The notes beneath the pieces are model-generated. The model saw nothing but the letters and a program-made list of their open reading frames with translations. It ran no database searches and was not told the DNA's origin. Below, piece after piece: positions 7,731 through 58,380 of a stretch of 64,000 bases of DNA. How positions within the stretch are numbered: position 1 is the first letter of the stretch; each line of letters opens with the position of its first letter. Position numbers and translations under genes: made by a program. Source of the stretch: Heterodontus francisci (Eukaryota); assembly GCF_036365525.1 (NCBI RefSeq), contig NC_090389.1, forward strand, positions 8,432,001 to 8,496,000. Reading direction: 5' to 3'.

Positions 7731-10700
7731 AAAATAACTATTTCAGAGTGACATTACAGACATTACAATGAAAGTCCATACACCTTTCAGGTATCAGGAC
7801 CATGAGGCATTTGTCAAGCATTCTCAATGTGGAAAGAAGTTTAATTATAGCAAACTGTTATAATACACAACACACAACATAAAACACACAGCACTAAAGC
7901 ATACAAAACACAGCATGTACAATACGCCAGCACAACTGTGGTCTCCTGCAGATTGCTTGATCATTTTTGGGGGATTGGAAAGGACTCTTCCAGAGTTTAG
8001 TTCCCAAATTGGCCTCGGCATCTATCCTCTTCCTTAGGAGGCTGCGTGGACATTGATGGGTGGGGAGATGGGATGGTGGTGTACACAAGTCACACTAAGC
8101 CAGTATAGGACTGGCCAGATGCACTAGCTGGTCTTTACCTGTTCTCCTATCTCGTATCGTCATATCTGTAATATTCTTACAGTCCCAGTCTATTATGTCT
8201 TGTAAATTCAATTTGAGTGGAATGGGTGTTCGTACAGGAGCTGAGATTTGATGTGCTTTATCAAATGCTTTTCACTCAACATATTACTCCCACTCTTCAT
8301 GAAGGTGCTGACTCCTTGTTGAGATATGGTTTGATAGATACCAGCTGCCCTATGTTATTTCACCCGGGTCACATTGCCATGTGTAAGTCTCAGCAATGTT
8401 TGTTGACAGCTCATTTAGTAATGGAGGATATGGCACATGTGCTTCTGGCTGGTATTACTGGGTAGTATCAGTCGTGGCCATCCTGCCTGATTTCCTCCCA
8501 CCTATATCCAGTGGTACTGAGGCCAGTTAGTCTGCTCCTGTTGCCATGGTAGATGGGATCAGCTAGCTTAGCTCAGATGGGGATTAACTTTCCTGGTCTG
8601 TATGTCTCAGCCACTCACTAAATCAGCTAACACAGCCAGGAAGGGTTGGTGAGCTTGCTCTCTTATTAAGGATGGGAAGGCAGGGGCAGGCAATTTCTGT
8701 TGATCCCTCCATTGAATCATTGTGTCCCATTTGTAACTGTCAGCTCCAAACAAGAGCTGAAAGTCACCCCACCCCTTTCTTTGCATTTCTCAGCTTCCCT
8801 TGTTACAGTGAGACAAGACCTTGGTACAACAGCAAAGACACAGAGAGAACAGCCGAAAGTTGAATAAGTCAAACATGCAACAAATATTCAACTTCTGGAC
8901 TTACATCAGATGTTCCTGCTTTTGCATCAAAGTATAAAACGTCTCGCTCCTAAAAGAAATATAAAAATAAATAAAAGAAGAGGCTTCAGATTAGTGTGTC
9001 TTCACCATCAAACGCCAATATGCAGTTTGGATGATGATACTACAGACAAGATGATTCTGTGGGGCTCAGCAGATTTAACACAAAGCTGCATTTCCTAAAT
9101 CACTTGCAGTGGATTCAATTCAGTAAATCCTCTCTCACTCACCAATTTTCAATTTTTGCCTCATGATCAATGTTCTCAGGATCAGCCTCAAGTGACAATT
9201 CACACCCCTGAACGAAATTCCTATTTTGCTATTGGTCGCCAGTTGATTCCAGTCTGAGTGTTTGAAGCTTCCACTTTCTGAAATGCTGGCCTTCACTGGA
9301 TAGACAACAGAGTGCAGCCTGAACAGCTTTCACCATAATACGTGGACCTGTCATGGCACTGCTCATGGTAACTTAGAGGTTAAGTCATGATTTAGTAATG
9401 TTCTTGTAACATTGGTTAAACCTAACATTTATTTAAAAGTGTAAGAGTAATGCCAGTTTCTGTTACATTTAATAGGTAACACTACCATGCCCACTAACTT
9501 TCTTTCTGCATTGTCATGGAAGATTCAATAGTTATTATTCCGCTATGGTACAGGTCTGTTCCTTTTTGTCTACAAAGTCTAATTGCTATAAATTGGAGAC
9601 CTTGAGGTCAGTTATAAGTTAATTGCTGTTAGCAAGGGAACATAATAAACTGCCAAGTGCTTCTGACTCCAGGTCTGAAAAATAATAGTACAAAAAAGCG
9701 AGCCCTGGAGACATGTGAGAGTGCATGTTGAGGGGTTCCCTCAGTGAGTGCGATCAGGGTTCTCTCAGTGTGAGTGTGTGTCAGGGTTCCTTCAGTGTGA
9801 GTGTTGGGGTTTGCTCGGCGAGAGTGTGTTGGGGTTTGCTCAGCGTTAGTGTGTTGGGGTTTGCTCGGCGTGAGTGTGTTGGGGGTTTGCTCAGTGTGAC
9901 TGTGTTGGGGGTTTGCTCAGCGTGACTGTGTTGGGGTTTGCTCGGCGTGAGTGTGTTGGGGGTTTGCTCAGTGTGAGTGTGTTGGGGTTTGCTCCGTGTG
10001 AGTGTGTTGGGGTTTGCTTGGCGTGAGTGTGTTGGGGGTTTGCTCAGTGTGAGCGTGTTGGGGGTTTGCTCAGTGTGAGCGTGTTGGGGGTTTGCTCAGT
10101 GTGAGTGTGTTGGGGTTTGCTCCGTGTGAGTGTGTTGGGGTTTGCTCCGTGTGAGTGTGTTGGGGTTTGCTCAGTGTGAGTGTGTTGGGGTTTGCTCAGT
10201 GTGAGTGTGTTGGGGTTTGATCAGTGTGAGAGTGTTGGGGTTTGCTCCGTGTGAGTGTGTTGGGGTTTGCTCAGTGTGAGTGTGTTGGGGGTTTGCTCTG
10301 TGTGAGTGTGTTGGGGTTTGCTCCGTGTGAGTGTGTTGGGGTTTGCTCAGTGTGAGTGTGTTGGGGTTTGCTCAGTGTGAGTGTGTTGGGGGTTTGCTCC
10401 GTGTGAGTGTGTTGGGGTTTGCTCAGTGTGAGCGTGTTGAGGGTTTGCTCCGTGTGAGCGTGTTGGGGTTTGCTCAGTGTGAGCGTGTTGGGGTTTGCTC
10501 AGTGTGAGTGTGTTGGGGTTTGCTCAGTGTGAGCGTGTTGGGGGTTTGCTCAGTGTGAGTGTGTTGGGAGTTTGCTCAGTGTGAGCGTGTTGGGGTTTGC
10601 TCCGTGTGAGCGTGTTGGGGTTTGCTCAGTGTGAGCGTGTTGGGGTTTGCTCCGTGTGAGCGTGTTGGGGTTTGCTCAGTGTGAGCGTGTTGGGGGTTTG

Positions 10701-13548
10701 CTCGGCGTGAGCGTGTTGGGGTTTGCTCGGCGTGAGCGTGTTGGGGTTTGCTCGGCGTGAGCATGTTGGGGTTTGCTCGGCGTGAGCGTATTGGGGGTTT
10801 GCTCAGCGTGAGCGTGTTGGGGTTTGCTCAGCGTGAGCGTGTTGGGGTTTGCTCAGCGTGAGCGTGTTGGGGTTTGCTCAGCGTGAGCGTGTTGGGGTTT
10901 GCTCAGTGTGAGTGTATTGGGGTTTGCTCAGTGTGAGTGTGTTGGGGGTTGATCAGTGTGAGTGTGTTGGGGGTTTGATCAGTGTGAGTGTGTTGGGGTT
11001 TGCTCAGTGTGAGTGTATTGGGGTTTGCTCAGTGTGAGTGTATTGGGGTTTGCTCAGTGTGAGTGTATTGAGGTTTGCTCCTTGTGAGTGTGTTGGGGGT
11101 TTGCTTGGCGTGAGTGTGTTGGGGTTTGCTCAGTGTGAGTGTGTTGGGGGTTTGATCAGTGTGAGTGTATTGGGGTTTGCTCAGTGTGAGTGTGTTGGGG
11201 GTTTGATCAGTGTGAGCGTGTTGGGGTTTGCTCCGTGTGAGTGTGTTGGGGTTTGCTCAGTGTGAGCATGTTGGGAGTTTGCTCAGTGTGAGCGTATTGG
11301 GGGTTTGCTCAGTGTGAGTGTGTTGGGGTTTGCTCAGTGTGAGAGTGTTGGGGTTTGCTCAGTGTGAGTGTGTTGGGGTTTGCTCAGCGTGAGCGTGTTG
11401 GGGTTTGCTCAGCGTGAGCGTGTTGGGGTTTGCTCAGCGTGAGCGTGTTGGGGGTTTGCTCAGTGTGAGTGTATTGGGGTTTGCTCCGTGTGAGTGTATT
11501 GGGGTTTGCTCAGTGTGAGTGTGTTGGGGGTTGATCAGTGTGAGTGTGTTGGGGGTTTGCTCAGTGTGAGTGCGTTGGGGGTTTGCTCAGTGTGAGCGTG
11601 TTGGGGTTTGCTCAGCGTGAGCGTGTTGGGGGTTTGCTCAGTGTGAGTGTATTGGGGTTTGCTCAGTGTGAGTGTGTTGGGGGTTGATCAGTGTGAGTGT
11701 GTTGGGGGTTTGCTCAGTGTGAGTGCGTTGGGGGTTTGCTCAGTGTGAGTGTGTTGGGGTTTGCTCAGTGTGAGTGCGTTGGGGGTTTGCTCAGTGTGAG
11801 TGTGTTGGGGTTTGCTCAGTGTGAGTGTATTGGGGTTTGCTCAGTGTGAGTGTATTGGGGTTTGCTCAGTGTGAGTGTATTGAGGTTTGCTCCTTGTGAG
11901 TGTGTTGGGGGTTTGCTTGGCGTGAGTGTGTTGGGGTTTGCTCAGTGTGAGTGTGTTGGGGGTTTGCTCAGTGTGAGTGTATTGGGGTTTGCTCAGTGTG
12001 AGTGTATTGGGGTTTGCTCAGTGTGAGTGTATTGAGGTTTGCTCCTTGTGAGTGTGTTGGGGGTTTGCTTGGCGTGAGTGTGTTGGGGTTTGCTCAGTGT
12101 GAGTGTGTTGGGGGTTTGATCAGTGTGAGTGTATTGGGGTTTGCTCAGTGTGAGTGTGTTGGGGGTTTGATCAGTGTGAGCGTGTTGGGGTTTGCTCCGT
12201 GTGAGTGTGTTGGGGTTTGCTCAGTGTGAGCGTGTTGGGGTTTGCTCAGTGTGAGTGTGTTGGGGTTTGCTCAGTGTGAGTGTGTTGGGGTTTGCTCAGT
12301 GTGAGTGTATTGGGGTTTGCTCAGTGTGAGTGTATTGGGGTTTGCTCAGTGTGAGCGTGTTGCGGTTTGCTCAGTGTGAGTGTGTTGGGGTTTGCTCAGT
12401 GTGAGTGTATTGGGGTTTGCTCAGTGTGAGTGTATTGGGGTTTGCTCAGTGTGAGCGTGTTGCGGTTTGCTCAGTGTGAGTGTGTTGGGGTTTGCTCAGT
12501 GTGAGTGTATTGGGGTTTGCTCAGTGTGTGTGTATTGGGGTTTGCTCAGTGTGAGCGTGTTGGGGTTTGCTCAGTGTGAGTGTGTTGGGGTTTGCTCAGT
12601 GTGAGCATGTTGGGGTTTGCTCAGTGTGAGTGTATTGGGGGTTTGCTCAGTGTGAGTGTGTTGGGGTTTGCTCAGTGTGAGCGTGTTGGGGTTTGCTCAG
12701 TGTGAGTGTATTGAGGTTTGCTCCTTGTGAGTGTGTTGGGGGTTTGCTTGGCGTGAGTGTGTTGGGGTTTGCTCAGTGTGAGTGTGTTGGGGGTTTGATC
12801 AGTGTGAGTGTATTGGGGTTTGCTCAGTGTGAGTGTGTTGGGGGTTTGATCAGTGTGAGCGTGTTGGGGTTTGCTCCGTGTGAGTGTGTTGGGGTTTGCT
12901 CAGTGTGAGCATGTTGGGAGTTTGCTCAGTGTGAGCGTATTGGGGGTTTGCTCAGTGTGAGCGTGTTGGGGTTTGCTCAGTGTGAGTGTGTTGGGGTTTG
13001 CTCAGTGTGAGCGTGTTGGGGTTTGCTCCGTGTGAGTGTGTTGGGGTTTGCTCAGTGTGAGTGTGTTGGGGTTTGCTCAGTGTGAGCGTGTTGGGGTTTG
13101 CTCAGTGTGAGTGTATTGGGGTTTGCTCAGTGTGAGCGTGTTGGGGTTTGCTCAGTGTGAGTGTGTTGGGGTTTGCTCAGTGTGAGCATGTTGGGGTTTG
13201 CTCAGTGTGAGTGTATTGGGGGTTTGCTCAGTGTGAGTGTGTTGGGGTTTGCTCAGTGTGAGCGTGTTGGGGTTTGCTCAGTGTGAGTGTATTGGGGTTT
13301 GCTCAGTGTGAGCGTGTTGGGGTTTGCTCAGTGTGAGTGTGTTGGGATTTGCTCAGTGTGAGCATGTTGGGGTTTGCTCAGTGTGAGTGTATTGGGGGTT
13401 TGCTCAGTGTGAGTGTGTTGGCGTTTGCTCAGTGTGAGCGTGTTGGGGTTTGCTCAGTGTGAGTGTGTTGGGGTTTGCTCAGTGTGAGTGTATTGGGGGT
13501 TTGCTCAGTGTGAGCATGTTGGGGTTTGCTTAGTGTGAGTGTATTGGG

Positions 13549-14869
13549 CATTTGCTCTCTCTCCATTGTGGGTAAGAACCTGGTCATCAGGTGCGAGGCG
13601 CTCACGTTGTTGCTCTACGTGGCGCAGGTCTGGCCCATACCCCACTCCTGCGCCGTGGCAGTCACCCGAGCCATTTTCCGCTTCGTCTGGGGATCTAAAA
13701 TGGACCGGGTCCGGAGGGACACGATGTTCAAATCTCTGGACATGGGCGGGAAAAATGTACCCAACGTGGCCCTCATCCTGATGACCACCTTCGTGTGCGG
13801 CTGCATCAAGCTATGTGTAGATCCCCAGTACGCAAACTCCAAGTGTCACTACGTGCTGAGGGTCTATCTGTCCCCGGTGTTGCGAAGGATGGGCCTGGTC
13901 ACATTGCCGCGGAACGCACCATGCAGTTGGGCGGCGCCGTACCACCTATCCTTCGTGGAGCAGTTTCTGCGGAAAAACACCTTTGACCACCGGTCCATCA
14001 GGCAGTGGTCTGCACGGAATGTCCTCAAGGCCCTACGGGAAAAGGAAACGGTGGATCCTGTCGGATGGTTCCCCGAGCAGACCGTCAAAGTCATTTGGCG
14101 GAATGCCTCATCACCAGAACTTTCAAACAAGCACCAAGACGTAGCTTGGCTGGTGGTGAGAAGGGCCCTCCCCGTCAGATCCTTCATGCACACCCGAAGT
14201 CTCGCCCCCTCCGCACAGTGCCCCCGCGTTGGCTGTGGTGGGGAAGAGACGGTCGCCCACCTCCTCTTGGAATGTGCCTTTGCAAAGCAGGTGTGGAAAG
14301 AGATGCAGTGGTTTTTGTCAAGGTTCATCCCAAGCAGCTCTGTAACACAGGAGTCTGTGCTCTACGGGCTGTTCCCAGGGACGCACACCGAGACAAACAT
14401 CAACTGCTGCTGGAGGACTATCAATTCGGTGAAAGACGCCCTTTGGTCTGCCCGAAACTTGCTGGTCTTCCAGCGCAAAGAGTTGTCCACCACCGAATGT
14501 TGCAGACTGGCACATTCCAAGGTCCAGGACTACGTGCTGAGGGACGCACTAAAGCTTGGGGCAGCCGCAGCAAAGGCTCAATGGGGAAAGACCACAGTGT
14601 AAGGTTCCCCCACCAAGCTGGACTGAGGGGCTGGATCAATGGGAAACCCCTCGAACTGTATCGTTAATATTCTGAATTGCTGTAAATGTAAAACTGTAAT
14701 TGACATGACAATTGTGAAACGGAAGGGTTGGGAAGAAACTCATGACAGTATTGAAGGAAACTGATCTCCCTTGCAATGTTTGTATTTTTTGGTGCTGTTT
14801 GGAAACTGTTTGGCAATGTAATTTTTACAGATTTTTATGAATAAAGTATATTTTGGAAAAAAAAAAAAA
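13549..14869 (+). mobile_element. Tx1/L1-clade LINE, 5'-truncated, young
   Basis: Open frame to 14602 including the zf-RVT motif CPRVGCGGEETVAHLLLEC. The 3' UTR has AATAAA and a poly(A) tail at about 14857-14869. Confidence 0.9.
13550..14602 (+). CDS. C-terminal ~350 aa of Tx1-like ORF2 (post-RT region plus CCHC zinc finger); truncated, no true start
   Basis: Uninterrupted ORF-track entry 13526-14602. Its first codons come from the minisatellite. Confidence 0.7.
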   Translation: MCSLSIVGKNLVIRCEALTLLLYVAQVWPIPHSCAVAVTRAIFRFVWGSKMDRVRRDTMFKSLDMGGKNVPNVALILMTTFVCGCIKLCVDPQYANSKCHYVLRVYLSPVLRRMGLVTLPRNAPCSWAAPYHLSFVEQFLRKNTFDHRSIRQWSARNVLKALREKETVDPVGWFPEQTVKVIWRNASSPELSNKHQDVAWLVVRRALPVRSFMHTRSLAPSAQCPRVGCGGEETVAHLLLECAFAKQVWKEMQWFLSRFIPSSSVTQESVLYGLFPGTHTETNINCCWRTINSVKDALWSARNLLVFQRKELSTTECCRLAHSKVQDYVLRDALKLGAAAAKAQWGKTTV

Positions 14870-15660
14870 GTTTGCTCACTGTGAGTGTGTTGGGGTTTCC
14901 TCACTGTGAGTGTGTTGGGGTTCCCTCAGTGTGAGTGTGTTGGGGCTCTCTCTCTGTGTTAGTGTGTTTTGGGGTTTTCTCAGTGTGAGTGTGTTGGGGC
15001 TCTCTCAGTGTGAGTGCATTTTTGGGGTTACCTCAGTGTGAGTATGATTTGGGGTTCTTTCAGTGTGCTAATTTGGGGACACCAGTGAGTTATAAATTAC
15101 TAAACTTATGCATAAAATAGATTTGGTCATGAATAAATGTGTTTTTTCGAATAAATTGTTTTAACTTAGACAGATTATAAATATGAGAGAAGGATTTTAG
15201 AGGTACAATGATTTTATTCAATAAAACAGTATTTCATAAATGATAATTGAATACTTAACCTTTGAATATTTATGAACAACACTGAGTATGCATGTTATAT
15301 TAAATTCAATCCAACAAGTTTGATTTAGAAGATTAAAGTTCCTTGTAGAGGACTCTAAATCTGTTCTGTCTCGTGATTAGTTTTGCCAAGAATACAAAGT
15401 AATTTCAAAGCTACGTAAAACAGAAAATATAAGTATTGTATGAGAGAGTACAGAAACCTGTGAGCAGAAAGATAATGCTTTGCACCGAATATGGCAATGT
15501 CACCGGCAAACTCAGCATGAAGAAGCTGAATGATCAAAACCTATGATATAATCACCAACACATCACCATATCATCACCAACACATCACCATATCATCACC
15601 AACACATCACCATATCATCACCAACACATCACAATTTCATCACCAACACATCATCATTTC

Positions 15661-20993: not shown

Positions 20994-23900
20994 ATCATCA
21001 CCAACATAGCACTGTATAATCTCCAACATAGCACTGTATAATCATCAACACATGCACCATATAATCACCAACAGATACACCATATAGTCACCAACAGATC
21101 TTCATGTAGACACCAACATCATCATGTAATCACAAAGACATTATCGCATAATCGGCAACACATCACCATGTTATCACCCACACATCACCATATCATCACC
21201 AACATATAACAATATCACTAACACAACAACCATATATTGACCAACACATCCGCCATTTAACCACTAACATACCTTCCAAAATAATTACCAAAGCATCACC
21301 AAATAATAAGCAACATGCCCACCATATAATCACCAAGACATCACCATATATTCACCAACACATCACCACATATTCACCAACACATCACCATATATTCACC
21401 AACACATCATATTTTACTAATACAACTGCCATAAAATCACCAAAACATCACAACACAATCACCTACACATCATCATAACATGACTAACATATCACCATAT
21501 AATCACCAACACTGGACCATATATTCACAAACACAGCACCATATCATCACCAATATATCACCATATCATTACCAATATATCACCATATCATTACCAATGT
21601 ATAACCAAATCACCAACACACCAACCATATAATCACCAACACACCCACCATATAATGACCAACAAATCACCAAATAATTACCAACACATCACCATACAAC
21701 CCCAAAACATCATCACATAATCACCAAAACATCACCATATAATTAACAATACATCACCAAATAATCCCCAACATATCACCATATAATTACCAACTCACCC
21801 ACCATATCATCATCAACACATCACCATATAAGCAACATATTGCTGAATAATCACCAACAGATCACCATAATCACTAACACATCACCATATAATCACCAAC
21901 ACACCATCAAATAATCACCAACACATCGCACCATATAATCACCAACTGATCACTATATAATCACCAAAACAACACAGTATAATCACCAACACACCTACAC
22001 ATCATCCACACATCACCATTTCATTGCCAACCTTTCACCATATCATCACCTATACATCACGATATAATCATTAACAGATTACCAAATAAACAGTAACACA
22101 CCTAACATATAAGCACCAATATATCACCATATAATCAACAACAGATCACCATATTATCACCAACATATCACAATATCACCAAAACACCAAGATCACCAAC
22201 ACATCCACCATTTAACCATCAACATACCCGCCATATAATCACCAATAAAACCACCATAAAATCACCAAAACATCATCATAACAATCAAAAACACACCCAC
22301 CAACACATCAGCATAATCACCAACATATCACCATATCATGAAGACATCAGCAACACATGCAGAATACAATCAACATATTACCATATAATCATCAACAGAT
22401 CACCAAATAATTAGCAACACTCCCACCATATAATCACCAACACATCACTATTTCCTGACTAACACATAACATCTATTCATCTACACATACCATATAATCA
22501 TCAACGTACGCATCCATCTAATCACCATCTATTATCATATTATCACCAACAATCATTATATAATCACAAAAACATCACCATAAAATCTACTCTAGCAATT
22601 TTATGAACCTCAAGACCGCCAGCATATGCATTACCCTCTCGATAGATCACTGAAGCAGATCAGCAAAGAATAGTAGGCTGATCTTACTGGAGGTAAATGT
22701 TGATCTGAAGCTATATCAATAAATATAAGGGAATTTGTCTGTAATTTGAAAGATGCTATTCTAGTTGCATAAATTAGTGATGAGGCCTCATTTATAATAC
22801 TTGCAAGCAATACTGGACACCTAAACCACCCAGACCAAGATCTGTTTGATGTGAAAGCAGTGGAAGGAATGGGTTGCCTCATGTTTTTTCAAAAAATATT
22901 TGTTCTAGGGCTGTGGGCGATGATTTTTTTGTCCATTCCGAGGTGCCCTCAGGGCATTAAGAGTCAATTGTATTGAGGGGCTCAAATCGCATGTCAGCTC
23001 GACCTGGTAGGCGTGACAGATTCCGTTCTTTAAAGAACATGAGCTTTTCAGGAGAGATGCAGCACCAGGGATTTTAGCTCTCCCACACTGGATCTTTGCA
23101 GGGTTTCTTCAAAGAGGTAGAGAAAGAGGTGAGCTGGGTGGTTTCTTTTTCCTAGGCAGGCAAAACACCAACTGTCTTCAAAACAGTTCACACCCCAACT
23201 GACTTGAAAATGATATCCAAAACACCAAAACAGAAAGTCAACCTCCTGACCTCCAGAAATCTTGACATGTGGCTTCTCTGTAAACATCTTCCCCAGGTCA
23301 CCAAGGTCTCTTTTGTTTATTAAGTTTAAAGCACATGACTTCCAGCAAGGTTGCTTTTAAACAACATCTCAGTGTCCTTTCAGTGAACTGCCAACAACAA
23401 AGCAAAGTCCAGCTTCTATGAAATCTTTACCCTTCTAATGAATCCATCTCCACAATTTAAAAAAATACTTAACAAAAATTATAGAAGCATCTTCATAACA
23501 ATATCAAACGTGAAGCTTCATCTGAGACTAGCATGAGACCTCGTTTCACTAAAAGCACCATTTCATTGAGGCCCATGTGTCGGCCAGCCTAGGCACCAAA
23601 AATGGGCGGCAGTACAGTCAAATTTGGTAGGTGTTGGAGGGACAGATGACCTTCCCTTGCATATGTTAACTGATGTACTGTTTTTACTCCACTATTCCAT
23701 ACTTGCCAACTAGCTTCCCATCTATTTCTGTATTTACATCGTTCCCTAATCTTCAATATACCATAATGTCGTTACCTGACACTACATGGCATGGAACCCA
23801 AACAGGAATTCAGGGAAGACAAACAGGTGGAAGCTGAAGTTTGGTACCAGTACATTAGCAGCACATAGCTGCTGAGTTGTAGCATCAATGAAGATGCCTT

Positions 23901-53250: not shown

Positions 53251-54466
53251 GAATATATCCTCGCTGTTTGCCACACCTCCAAGTTTGGTGCCATCGGCAA
53301 ATTTTGAGATTCTACTCTGTATTCCAAGATCCAAATCACTTACATATGTAGCAGAAAAACCAACGGTCCCAGCACTGACCCTTGGGGAACACCACTGCCT
53401 GCTATCCTCCAATCTGAAAGCAACTATTTACCACAACTCGCTGTTTGCTGCCCTTGAACCAATTTGTTTTATCCAATTGGACACTGACCCTCATATTCCA
53501 TGAGCCTCAATCTTGTTAACCAGCCTTTTATGCGGTACCTTATCAAACACCTTTTAAAAATCTATATAAACAATATCCACTGCATTCCCTTCATCAATCT
53601 TCTCAGTTACTTCATCAAAAAATTTTATTATATTCATCAAGCATGATCTGCATTTTATAAATCCATGCTGGCTATCCTTAATTGACTTGAATCTCTCCAA
53701 GTGTCTATTGATTTCTTCCCTAATTATTGTTTCTAAAAACTTACCCACCACGTACGTTAAACTAACTGGCCTGTAGTTGCTAGGACTGCCCTTATATCCT
53801 TTCTTGAATAAGGGTGTCACATTTGCCACTCTCCAATCCTCTGACACCTCCCCCATATCCAGGGAAGATTATAAGATTATGGCAAGCCCTTCTGCTATCT
53901 CCATCCCCATTTCCTTTAGCAATCTGGGATGCAAGCCATCCAGACCAGGTGACATATCTAATCTCAGCATAGCCAGCCTTTTTATTACCTTCTCCTTCTC
54001 AATTTTTACTCTATCCATTGCCGCTACTCTCTCTGTTCCTACCAATATTTTGTCAGATTCCACTTCCTTAGAGAACACTGATACAAGGTACTCATTAAGT
54101 ATATTAGCCTTGCCCTGTACCTCTAAGCAAATATCACCCTCTTTGTCCCAATAGGGCCCAATCCACCTCTTACTACCCGCTTACTATTGTTACGTGAGCT
54201 CTTTTATTTTTCTTTGTACAATATGTTTTAAGAAATTATAGTTGGATTGTGGACACTGATTCATCTATAATATTGAAGAGGCTGAACTTTGTGGTTGTAT
54301 TAAAAAAAAGGAAAGTCAACAGAAGGTTCCTGATTTTGGCTAGTAAACAAGTTTACTGGAAAACACCTGTTTGCAAAGAACCCAGCAGCGAGTTGTGCTG
54401 TGATTCTGAAAGAGCTATTTACAAGGAAATGACAAGTCAAGATTTATGGGTGTCATAGGACTTGTT

Positions 54467-55166
54467 GAGCAGAGAGACCTTGGGGTGCAAGTACATAGTT
54501 CCCTGAAAGTGGCAACACAGGTAGACAGGGTGGTGTAGAAGGCGTATGGCATGCTTGCCTTCATCGGCCGAGGCATTGAGTCCAAGAGTTGGGACACCAT
54601 GTTACAGTTGTACATAACGTTGGAGTACTGTGTGCAGTTCTGGTCGCCGCACAACAGGAAAGATGTGATTAAGCTAGAGAGGGTGTAGAAAAGATTCACA
54701 GGGATGTTGCCTGGTTTGGAGGGTTTGAGTTATAAAGAAAGATTGGATAGGCTGGGTCTGTTTTCTCTGGAGTGAAGGAGGCTGAGAGGGGATATGATAG
54801 AGGTTTATAAAATTATGAGAGGCATAGACAGGGTAGATAGCCAGAGTCTGTTTCCCATGGTAGGGGTGACTAAAACTAGAGGGCACAGATTTAAGGTGAG
54901 AGGGAGGAGGTTTAGAGGGGATCAAAGGGGTAAATTTTTCACACAAAGAATAGTGGGTATCCAGAATGAGCTGCCTGAGGAGGTGGTGGAGGCAGGAACA
55001 GTAGCGACATTTAAGAGGCATCTGGACAGGTACTTGAATGAGCAAGGCATAGAGGGATATGGAATTAATGCAGGCAGGTGGGATTAGTATAGATAGGCAT
55101 TATGGTTGGCATGGACGTGGTGGGCCGAAGGGCCTGCTTCTATGCTGTACGACTCTATGACTCTAT
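54467..55166 (+). mobile_element. CR1 3' end nested in the LTR
   Basis: MIEVYKIMRGIDRVD..., (ctctatga)n tail, and an 8-bp TSD gacttgtt. Confidence 0.9.
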
Positions 55167-55246
55167 GACTTGTTTTGGGAAAAAGTTGGTTTCATTTTGA
55201 ACTGTTAAAAAAGCCAGTTGGTTTGGTCGCAAGCAGAAAGAAGTGA

Positions 55247-55319
55247 GCCTGGATAGCTCAGTAGGTAGAGTATCAGACTTTTAATCTGAGGGTCCAGGGT
55301 TCAAGTCTCTGTTTAGGGA
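55247..55319 (+). pseudogene. tRNA-Lys(UUU) pseudogene
   Basis: GCCTGGATAGCTCAGTAGGTAGAGTATCAGACTTTTAATCTGAGGGTCCAGGGTTCAAGTCTCTGTTTAGGGA is close to vertebrate tRNA-Lys-TTT. The anticodon arm is intact, with mismatches in the acceptor and T stems. Confidence 0.88.
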
Positions 55320-55361
55320 CTGTTATTAATACAGCATTTAACTCCCACATTCTTATCAACA

Positions 55362-55443
55362 GTAGTCACAGCTCAGTGGTTAAAACAATGGACTAAAAAT
55401 GCAATGGGGTCTCCCTGCATGGTTTTGAATCCTGCTGACTATG
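55362..55443 (+). pseudogene. tRNA-Ser(AGA)-derived pseudogene
   Basis: 82 nt colinear with vertebrate tRNA-Ser-AGA (gtagtc..gagtggttaa..gatggacta.aaatc.a.tggggtctcccc..gaatcctgc.gacta.g), including the long variable arm. Many CpG-type changes; the anticodon is mutated. Confidence 0.8.
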
Positions 55444-55467
55444 GTAGCTATGACGTTGATTATGTTT

Positions 55468-55632
55468 GAGTATGCTTAAAGCAGAGATTGACAGATTTCT
55501 AAATACTAATTACATAAGGGGATATGAGGATAGTGTGGGAAAAAGGCATCAAAGAGGATGATCAGCCATGATCATATTGAATGGCAGGGCAGGCCTGATG
55601 GACTGAATGGCCTACTCCTCATCCCATGTTCC
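55468..55632 (+). mobile_element. Short CR1 3' tail directly downstream of the tRNA pair
   Basis: agtatgcttaaagcagagattgacagatttct...gatcagccatgatcatattgaatggc...gaatggcctactcct matches the reverse complement of 52860-53015. Confidence 0.85.
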
Positions 55633-58380
55633 AGACCTGCCAGGAGAACAGAGGAAGACAGTTGATATCTCTCTTTGAAGAATTCCTGCATCAAGTTGTA
55701 CTATTGCCTCTTGTATTTGAAGAAATCCTGTATGTTTGCAGAAAACCTTGCATCTTTGAAGGAACTTTCCATTGAATGTGTGGGAACTGAAGTCTTTGTT
55801 GTTGCACACCTGATGTAAGACCTATGTGAAACCTTCTGTAGCTGCATCTCTTGAAAGCCAGACTGTTCACCAACATTGCCTGGAAAGAACTGTTCCAGGC
55901 AGATTCCTAGTGGTAGCCAGCTATTCACCTTTGGGACACCTTGCCAAAACATAGGACTTCCACGTCGTTTCAGTCTAATTTTTTTTATTCCTTCTATTTC
56001 TTAATAACAGCTGTAAACAAAAATCCCTTTTTTCCCGGTTAAACGTTTGTGTATGAGAATGTTTGTATGAGGGCTAGGATAAAAATAAGGGGTTTTAATA
56101 TTTCAATTCATGTGTATGTTTACTTTATTATTGGTTAAGACTTGGTTTATAATAAACGGATAGTTTTGTTGTTTATTCAAAAAACTTGATTGGTGTGCTT
56201 TATTCTGGGGGGAAAATAAGAGTATCTGATTGACGGTTTTAGTAAGTAGGAAAATTTAAATATATATTGTGATCTGTGGAGAAGTGGGACTGAGTTAACA
56301 GTGCACTCCTCCTGCCTTAGTCGTAACACTATTTACATGCCGGTGCAAGATTTTTGGGTTCCCTTTTATGTTAACTGCCATTCTATTCTCATATTCTCTC
56401 TTTGCCAGTCTTACTTTCCTCTTCAACTGCCATCTCAACTTACTGTATTTGGCCTGGTTCTCACTTGAAGAATTCACCTGACATGCAGCATACGCCCTCT
56501 TTTTTTGTTTCTTCATAATCTCTATCTCCCTTGTCATCCATGAAGCCCTGCTTTTGGTTCCTTTACCTTTTGCCCTTGTTGGAATGTACCTAGCCTGTAC
56601 CTGAAACATTGCTTTAAAATAACCCACTGTTCTGATACAGCTCTTCCTGTCAGTGTTTGGTTCGATTTTACCCTGGCTAGATCCCTTCTCTTCGCGTTGA
56701 AATTAGCCCTCTTCCAATCTGGATGTTCTACCTTATTTCGTTCCATGCTTTTCTGCATTACTGGTCTAAACTTTATGGTATGATGATCACTCTTACCCAT
56801 GTGCTGTCGACAGGCACTTGGTCCACTTGGCCCACCTCATTTCCCAGCACCAGATCCAGCAATGCCTCCTTTCTAGTTGGGCCGAGAACATACTAGTCAA
56901 GGAAGTTCCCCTCTACACATTTCAGAAATTCCTCCCCCTCTCTACACTTTACTCTAGAATTATCCCAATCGATATTTAGGTAATTAAAGTCCCCAAAATC
57001 ACCACTCTATAGTTCTTGCTCATCTCGTGATTTTCCTGCAGTTTTGCTTCTCTATCTCTCTCACTATTTGGAGGCTTATAGAATAACCCTAGTAGCATGA
57101 TCATATCCTTTTTGTTTCTCATTTCTAACCAAATGGATTCTGTTCTTGTCTCCTCAAGGACATCCCCTCTTTCCAACAATACACTATCTTCCCTAATCAG
57201 TACTGCCACCTCACCTCCCTTTTTTCCTTCTCTATCTTTTCTGAACACTTTATATCCTTGAATATTAAGCACCCGGTCCTCACCATTTTTAAGCCATGTT
57301 TCTGTTATTGCTACATCATAGTCCCATACTGCTATTCGTGCTTGAGGCTCACCAACCTTATTCACCACAATTTGTGCATTCACATACATGCATTGTAATC
57401 CTGTCTTTGCATTCCTCGTAGTCCTTCTCAGTCCGTTCCCATCTATTACGGAACTACTCCTTCTCTAGTACTGTATAACACTCCCACATTATGCACCCTA
57501 TTCCTTGTTTCTACTTCTATATGCTGGTGCCTACCCCCTGCCAATTTAGTTTAGCCCTCCCAACCACATAGTGAATCTCGCCGCAAGGATATTAGTCCCA
57601 GTCCTGTTAAGGTGAAACCCATCCCTTTTGTATTAGTTCCTTCTGCCCCAGAACTGGTTCCAATGCCCAACAATCTGAAGCCCTCCCTCCCGCTCCACAC
57701 CTCCAGCCACACATTGATCCTCCCTATTGTCCTATTTCTACTCTTGCTAGCCTGTGGCACTGGAAGTAATCCAGAGATTACTACCTTCAAGGTCCTACTC
57801 TTCAACTTCCTTCCTAGCTCCTGAAAATCTGACCTTGCTATGTCATTGGTATCACAACTTCTGGCTCACTCCCTTCCCCCTGCAGAATATCCTGCACTGT
57901 CTCCGTGATATCCTTTACCCTGACACTAGGGAGGCAACTCACCATGTGGGACTCAAGATAATGGTTATAGAAATGCCTAACTGTGCCCCTGAGTAAGGGA
58001 TCACCTATAACAACTACATTTTTGCCCTTTACTGCTCCCTCCTGTATAGACCCATGGCCACTGGCACGATGGACTGGACTGCACTCCTTCAAGGTGTCGT
58101 CACTCCCAGCCATCTCCAAAGCTGAATACCTGTTCAGGAGCGGCGCACAACCTGAAGACTTCTAAACTTCCTGCCTCTTTGTTCTCTTCCTCATGGCCAC
58201 CCACCTACAATCCTGAGCTGCTACTACTGTGTCAGTGGGTATGTGCACTGCCCACTAGTACTGAACTCTGCAGAACATGAAGTTGCGATTGCCAGGTTTG
58301 ACTCCCAACTGAGATCGCTAGATTTTGTTGGGCATGGTATCAAGGAATATGGAGCCGAGGCAGATAAATGAAGTTCAGGT

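Follow-up and report, generated by a model that had tools for sequence, protein, structure and literature searches.

Chimeric insertions in which a LINE reverse transcriptase has switched templates twice are known from a fungus, the mouse and human (PMC2104539, PMC4476161). The examples given in the accessible text of one of these reports, WEIRD/Mg-SINE/MGL of Magnaporthe and B2/U6/L1 of the mouse, each join three sense RNA copies with the LINE 3' end last (PMC2104539). Human tRNA/LINE-1 chimeras carry a tRNA co-inserted at the 5' end of the LINE; the available part of that preprint lists 21 loci, typically half-length and mostly antisense, for which twin priming is invoked (bioRxiv 10.1101/2025.02.02.635956). 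Pre-tRNA retropseudogenes made by L1 likewise derive from an unprocessed nuclear tRNA template, and the lines of PMC4476161 that cite them (Schmitz et al. 2004) make no mention of either a LINE tail or a second tRNA being fused to them.

Template switching has also been proposed as a route by which SINEs acquire new small-RNA heads, among them PittSINE, whose head would stem from a jump off a CR1 tail onto tRNA-Asp (PMC5729268), and SINEU, with small-RNA heads added 5' of a SINE tail (PMC4494074). According to the accessible portions of these two reports, head-adding switches sometimes occur at short junction homology, and head addition by switching is likewise proposed for chimaera SINEs (PMC5499810). 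The HE1 SINE and HER1 LINE of sharks and rays combine a tRNA head with a CR1-type tail (PMC3747384). As a rule, the birth of a SINE by template switching is deduced in retrospect, from a family that has already amplified.

Here, we describe a unit in a 64,000-nucleotide stretch of genomic DNA (the window) that consists of a tRNA-Lys copy, a tRNA-Ser copy and a CR1 tail. It shares its sense arrangement with the Magnaporthe and mouse chimeras, which, as far as their description is accessible, are flanked by target duplications of 14-16 bp and were built from RNAs and LINE clades of other kinds (PMC2104539); in the window, by contrast, each of the two added parts is a tRNA precursor that can be traced to individual genes, the LINE is of CR1 type and there is no duplication. 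Unlike the human chimeras as described in the available text (bioRxiv 10.1101/2025.02.02.635956), its tRNAs are full-length and sense, with leader and trailer. PittSINE and SINEU amplified and their switch was deduced from the family, whereas this unit is unamplified and its source genes and junction homology are visible. It differs from HE1/HER1 in having no SINE body, real rather than remodelled tRNA copies and a single copy. In the literature covered, which was partial and did not extend to subscription journals or Repbase/Dfam, no publication was found that describes a CR1 tail joined to two pre-tRNAs. The labels CR1, HE1-like and shark are our assumption, taken from general resemblance and from the naming in a preliminary description of this DNA.

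Results

A single foreign unit in a solo LTR

The features of the unit and its surroundings are as follows.

54188..56328, + (as matched, not functionally determined): host solo LTR-type repeat; inverted ends TG...CA, target duplication CTAT (4 bp)
54467..55166 (approximate), +: separate 5'-truncated CR1-type insertion, not part of the chimera, with an 8-nt direct repeat at its bounds
55245..55246, +: 2-nt 5' leader GA, missing from empty LTR copies and also found upstream of Lys genes on contig C28
55247..55319, +: tRNA-Lys(UUU) copy without CCA (ARAGORN, Rfam, gene comparison)
55320..55347, +: Lys 3' trailer, matching gene L133 (C28:11,471,587) and reaching ~20 nt beyond that gene's TTTT
55348..55361, +: 14 nt without an assigned source, the expected place of the Lys/Ser switch; their by-eye likeness to Ser leaders is not significant
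55362..55443, +: decayed tRNA-Ser(AGA) copy without CCA, 80-83% identical to Ser genes
55444..55451, +: Ser trailer, corresponding to the first 8 nt of the trailer of Ser(AGA) genes on contig C29 (7/8 identical)
55452..55465, +: CR1-derived stretch that includes the first copy (55456-55465) of a 10-nt tandem duplication
55466..55632, +: 3' tail of a CR1-type LINE, 167 nt, the last 4 nt common to the target

The preliminary description had placed a 386-bp foreign unit, starting at the 5' end of the tRNA-Lys copy, inside a solo LTR. The location is borne out by the inverted ends and the CTAT duplication, and one foreign unit is indeed present there; its start, however, moves to the GA leader, giving 388 bp (55245-55632). 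None of the 29 sister LTR copies examined, out of at least 39 other copies, carries the tRNA pair at this site, and the pair is therefore not part of the LTR consensus. Individual empty LTR copies have 4 nt between the two flanks; these are missing from the window, a target deletion of ~4 nt, and TTCC, the last 4 nt of the unit, is shared with the target at the 3' end. Together, these observations delimit the unit and leave no duplication. Comparison with the empty copies likewise revealed no target duplication around the whole unit, nor separate ones for the tRNA pair and the CR1 tail. In 23 sister CR1 copies, with 5' ends placed roughly, the flanks had words of at most 0-7 nt in common; duplications are not obvious there either. 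All parts occupy one LTR site, but no target duplication proves that they arrived in one event. The separate CR1-type piece sits within this solo LTR as well, ~80 nt away from the chimera.

Four sequencing runs of one sample hold 30-35% of the unit's words, and rows at a share of 0.04 amount to no evidence. These four runs are probably from the assembly's own sample and thus offer no independent support for the unit. RNA-type runs of the same sample hold next to none of its words, which is not proof of absent transcription.

Composition of the unit

ARAGORN and Rfam found one tRNA in the window, the tRNA-Lys(TTT) at 55247-55319. Its Rfam score is 57.9 bits with the A- and B-box regions aligned, consistent with a putative Pol III-type head, and it is 94-96% identical to genomic Lys genes. 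The Ser copy scores only 14.7 bits in Rfam, under the gathering score, and is too decayed for ARAGORN. It is closest to Ser(AGA) genes, and its present anticodon, AAA, is one change from AGA. A TTTT now stands at 55423 within its T-loop and would be likely to stop Pol III before the tail. The gap between the two copies measures 42 nt, and this spacer holds no TTTT. Other Rfam hits inside the unit all fell below their gathering scores and were dismissed.

The LINE tail at 55466-55632 is 89-93% identical to at least 39 other copies among the matches listed, as expected of a 3' tail shared with a LINE. Longer copies of its family carry pieces of RVT_1 below the Pfam curated cut-off, in one long copy with E ~9e-6 (2/4 frames scanned). 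The unit is thus a tripartite chimera of three same-strand parts with sources on C28, on C29 and in a CR1 family, the LINE 3' end being last, and it bears the features of precursors, namely a leader, trailers and no CCA. Four components of the preliminary description, the tRNA-Lys(UUU) copy, the 42-nt spacer, the tRNA-Ser(AGA) copy without CCA and the last ~165 nt of a CR1, were recovered in this analysis, the Ser copy in its decayed state.

The Ser/CR1 joint lies within shared homology

The ~25 nt previously regarded as the Ser trailer proved to be mostly CR1, with only ~8 nt from a tRNA trailer. In register, 16/22 nt of this segment match CR1 (14-17/22 in 25 copies), a match equalled by 14/20000 shuffles. 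The Ser trailer matches that of the C29 Ser(AGA) genes, the best of 16 trailers (anchored p=0.0017, against a null inflated by the trailer's own likeness to CR1). Compared without the window, the C29 trailer and CR1 share 15/21 nt at the joint. When the pre-tRNA end was compared with the ~1.67 kb that terminate at the CR1 tail, it matched best at the joint in 8/9 loci, with a tie in 1/9; several of the CR1 copies are shorter than ~1.67 kb.

Reading by hand those sites that distinguish the C29 trailer from CR1, we found that the window agrees with the tRNA at two trailer positions, 2 and 8, and with CR1 at 11, 15 and 19-22, with an exception at 17. This change from tRNA to CR1 is the pattern of a homology-guided crossover, mapped to ~2 nt at ~55452-55453. 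A 10-nt word is duplicated at the joint. A trailer on a tRNA marks an unprocessed precursor, and the Ser RNA, still with its trailer, was therefore one.

Upstream of the Ser copy, the Ser leader was tried as part of the spacer and rejected (p 0.16-0.30). The second (Lys/Ser) switch point is accordingly not mapped, and 55348-55361 has no assigned source. Locus L063 shares the AAA anticodon but was rejected as the Ser source, as its flanks differ. Contig C29 carries a repeated tRNA cluster at C29:48.35-48.48 Mb (L167-L186) with His, Asp/Asn and Ser genes at ~40-kb intervals. On contig C34, a Ser(AGA) gene (L143, C34:5,959,579) is followed ~120 nt on by degenerate tRNA-like sequence below Rfam's score.

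Separate sources of the Lys and Ser parts

The alignment between the Lys gene L133 and the unit begins 3 nt ahead of the tRNA (TGA leader) and extends through 28 nt of the spacer. Its trailer attains an anchored score of 22 over these 28 nt, the next best of 14 Lys trailers scoring 10, and none of 3000 random genomic stretches and none of 600 shuffles reached 22. L133 had been noticed in an earlier comparison and the scoring was set afterwards, so the corresponding p-value is optimistic. The trailer match is gapped and old. The flanks of tRNA genes are subject to faster change, which could explain weak flank matches. Because the Lys trailer extends beyond the TTTT, read-through has to be assumed.

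Three other candidate sources were set aside. The C28 Lys array shares the GA leader, but its trailer gives no significant match (p 0.07-0.14 anchored, 0.15-0.96 local). The C34 Ser/Lys-CTT array has the wrong Lys isoacceptor, genes ~870 bp apart and a trailer score of 0. The trailer of L126 gave p=0.036 (0.007 by shuffle) at a score well below that of L133 and was not counted. In the C28 array (10.84-11.04 Mb, L002-L030), tRNA-Lys(TTT) genes are repeated in tandem every 1707 bp, and in most copies only TTT runs stand just downstream. The C34 array (12.63-12.73 Mb, L064-L091) repeats in tandem with a ~2154-bp period, and its Ser(AGA) genes share their strand with its Lys(CTT) genes.

The preliminary description had suggested that an unprocessed two-tRNA precursor, read through from a tandem cluster, was captured. 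That precursors rather than mature tRNAs were copied is upheld, but the dicistronic origin is not. An exact pattern of an intact Lys gene followed by an intact Ser gene had no match in the genome. ARAGORN called no Ser gene within 200 kb around L133 and no Lys gene within 200 kb at the C29 Ser cluster. A Lys-TTT/Ser-AGA cluster with the 42-nt spacer, which had been suggested as the source, was found only as the window itself; pair patterns and flank tracing gave no source locus with both genes at this spacing in an assembly that is possibly incomplete. The Lys pattern, built to skip most of the C28 array, returned 11 Lys loci including the window, and the Ser pattern, built to skip the C34 array, returned 12 Ser loci. 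A pattern of any T-loop followed by a Lys-type 5' end had 0 matches; it lacks a positive control and is hence weak.

A tandem Lys-Ser pair, now lost or unassembled, could still have been read through and captured in one switch. The 14 spacer nucleotides without an assigned source and the absence of TTTT from the spacer would fit such a transcript, and diverged or unassembled loci would escape pattern searches. We nevertheless regard this as very unlikely, given that no intact pair was found in the genome beyond the window, that the flanks trace to different contigs, and that a pattern for a tRNA joined to an Ala/Cys-type tRNA finds only the chimera L136, whose tRNAs come from separate loci. 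The unit is not evidence for dicistronic vertebrate tRNAs.

Proposed origin by two template switches

We propose that the unit probably arose in one CR1 retrotransposition in which the reverse transcriptase switched twice, from CR1 RNA to a pre-tRNA-Ser and then to a pre-tRNA-Lys, the two tRNAs coming from unlinked genes. The CR1 RNA would have been primed at a nick in the LTR through the 4-nt match. After ~180 nt, the cDNA would have moved onto a pre-tRNA-Ser(AGA) of the C29 family, where homology is seen. It would then have passed onto a read-through transcript of a C28 Lys(UUU) gene, copied as far as the 2-nt leader. Decay of the finished unit would have followed, and all 12 CpGs are lost. 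The switching of LINE reverse transcriptase onto cellular RNAs, invoked in the preliminary description, finds support in the traced Lys and Ser sources and in the Ser/CR1 homology.

Alternatively, the pieces might have been joined outside reverse transcription, either by RNA ligation before copying or by DNA repair templated from tRNA loci at a break. The Lys flank passes its terminator, as DNA would, the target has a deletion without a duplication, and the 10-nt duplication sits at the Ser/CR1 joint, all of which would suit such a route. Against it, the 5' end lies 2 nt ahead of a tRNA and every part is sense; the Ser/CR1 joint falls within the 15/21 homology, which ligation would not need; and the sister chimeras described below begin near a tRNA and mostly end in T-rich trailers. 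We therefore consider such joining very unlikely.

A younger chimera of the same design

A second three-part chimera is present elsewhere in the genome.

C7:98,835,950, -: L136 three-part chimera of Ser, 19 nt, Ala-type tRNA, ~240 nt of flank and full SINE (listed with L202 and L135)

The 19 nt after its Ser part match the trailer of a Ser gene on contig C3 at 15/19 positions, as well as none of 4000 random stretches did. No Ala gene was called within 60 kb at the C3 Ser gene. The Ala part, which has lost 9 nt between short direct repeats, matches together with ~225 nt of read-through flank an Ala(CGC) gene 20 Mb away (92% over 301 columns), and this flank match runs far past the TTTT of the source gene. 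Upstream of the source Ala(CGC) gene there is no Ser, and the SINE is missing from the corresponding position. The L136 block interrupts another LTR-type repeat, for which two contiguous empty sites are available, and shows no target duplication. It was the sole locus found with the pattern for such tRNA pairs.

L136 thus shows that in this genome two precursors with unlinked source genes, read-through included, did become joined upstream of a CR1-type tail. L136 is independent of the window unit, younger and of the same design, with source matches of 92-93%, and its like assembly supports that design for the window unit. The abundant SINE of the sister chimeras, presumably HE1-like, has 71% identity over 112 nt with the neighbouring CR1 tail.

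Decay of the parts

Relative to L133, the Lys copy has lost 4/4 CpGs and changed at 2/65 other sites, while the Ser copy, relative to gene L141, has lost 8/8 CpGs and changed at 10/66 other sites. When the 167-nt CR1 tail is set against the majority of 23 close copies, 13 differences appear. For change outside CpGs, Ser and Lys differ at p=0.03, and each compared with the tail gives p=0.14 and 0.24.

The greater decay of the Ser half is the main support for an origin in two steps, whereby an older Ser+CR1 chimera, here or at a lost master locus, later gained the Lys precursor by insertion or by a recopying switch. The Lys/Ser joint without a mapped position and the lack of a flanking duplication are compatible with this history, and sequential insertion is named as an alternative for tripartite chimeras in the accessible text of PMC4476161. 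No second Ser+CR1 copy was found, however; both halves have lost all their CpGs and neither differs from the tail; and L136, of the same design, has 92-93% matches in both of its tRNA parts. On this evidence, a two-step origin is unlikely, and a single retrotransposition with two switches remains our preferred explanation.

Copy number of the unit

DNA searches with the tRNA pair, the spacer and the Ser/CR1 joint yielded no second junction-spanning copy among the best 40 candidates scored. Genome-wide, the pair and spacer patterns matched the window alone. A 21-nt pattern of the Ser tRNA end, allowing at most one mismatch, matched only the window and four C29 genes, and the trailer of the source gene L133 has one occurrence in the genome. 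The chance of overlooking 10 sister copies is estimated at <1% even at 16% divergence, and that of overlooking 5 at up to 9%; both figures are rough, assuming independent tests and even divergence.

Further, dispersed copies of the complete unit were thus not found. Of the two options offered in the preliminary description, the one-off chimera agrees with spacer and junction searches that return only the window, or the window and candidate source genes; the undescribed SINE family does not, no second copy spanning any junction having been seen. The layout is admittedly SINE-like, with an intact-looking Pol III head and a LINE tail, as one copy of an undescribed dimeric-tRNA SINE family would have. 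Yet the spacer and pair searches return the window only, the Ser-end pattern adds just four Ser genes, and the probability of missing 10 sister copies is so low (9% for 5) that we consider membership of such a family extremely unlikely. Found once and without a target duplication, the unit is no SINE family; it is most likely a single-copy, SINE-like, dead intermediate without detectable daughter copies.

Two-part joins of tRNAs to an abundant SINE

A pattern running from a T-loop into the abundant SINE gave 127 matches, of which 100 were listed. Among 30 loci returned by it, 24 were the head of another SINE or unclear and 6 were tRNA-like by eye. Most of the 127 matches are the head of another tRNA-derived SINE (e.g. 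L209-L212), cut at its AT-rich stretch and followed by the abundant SINE; these could reflect either template jumps or a preferred insertion site. The Rfam tRNA score was passed by 16/30 loci scanned (3/14 returned by the pattern and 13/16 rows picked by eye), two of the 16 being duplicates of one insertion. Overall, at least 16 tRNA copies of several isotypes stand shortly upstream of the SINE's 5' end (L204-L249).

ARAGORN placed introns of 16-18 nt in several of these tRNA-SINE joins, and an intron-bearing Arg-type tRNA occurs at four independent sites. From 22 candidate joins, 2 without the tail motif were dropped; 7 of the remaining 20 interrupt a contiguous repeat, which corresponds to 7/9 of the candidates with a repetitive left flank. 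At L126, tRNA and SINE together are flanked by a duplication of 7 nt. Alternatively, the joins could stem from tRNA genes whose terminator contains a SINE, the read-through transcripts having been copied again. At L127 (C15) and L137 (C10), tRNA copies show a downstream likeness to the C28/C34 array trailers (~105 and 18 nt), followed by the SINE.

Discussion

It is plausible, at slightly less than even odds, that CR1 reverse transcriptase in this genome jumps routinely, and sometimes serially, onto nascent unspliced Pol III transcripts, including terminator read-through RNAs. If so, the genome would hold dozens to hundreds of intermediates of SINE birth with legible source genes, start sites, terminators and junction homologies, amounting to a fossil record of SINE head addition and of the tRNA genes that met the CR1 machinery in germline nuclei. 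Since the raw products survive with identifiable parents, the frequency of switching, its need for homology and the reason why almost none amplify become countable matters.

The window unit resembles the first step of SINE birth whilst belonging to no SINE family, and such hops may be a routine beginning of new short repeats. The unit itself is most likely a dead one-off, and its interest lies in the recurrence of such chimeras and in their traceable sources. In a species that lacks small-RNA data, chimeras of this kind document where tRNA precursors end, which introns they carry and how their genes are read through. They also make counts of tRNA genes too high and can be mistaken for dicistronic tRNA genes.

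Elsewhere in the window, large, strand-skewed minisatellites occur at 9757-13557, 14870-15067 and 20994-22587. Their units are of 25 nt, in ~150 copies, and of 11/22 nt, the latter being CA-rich.
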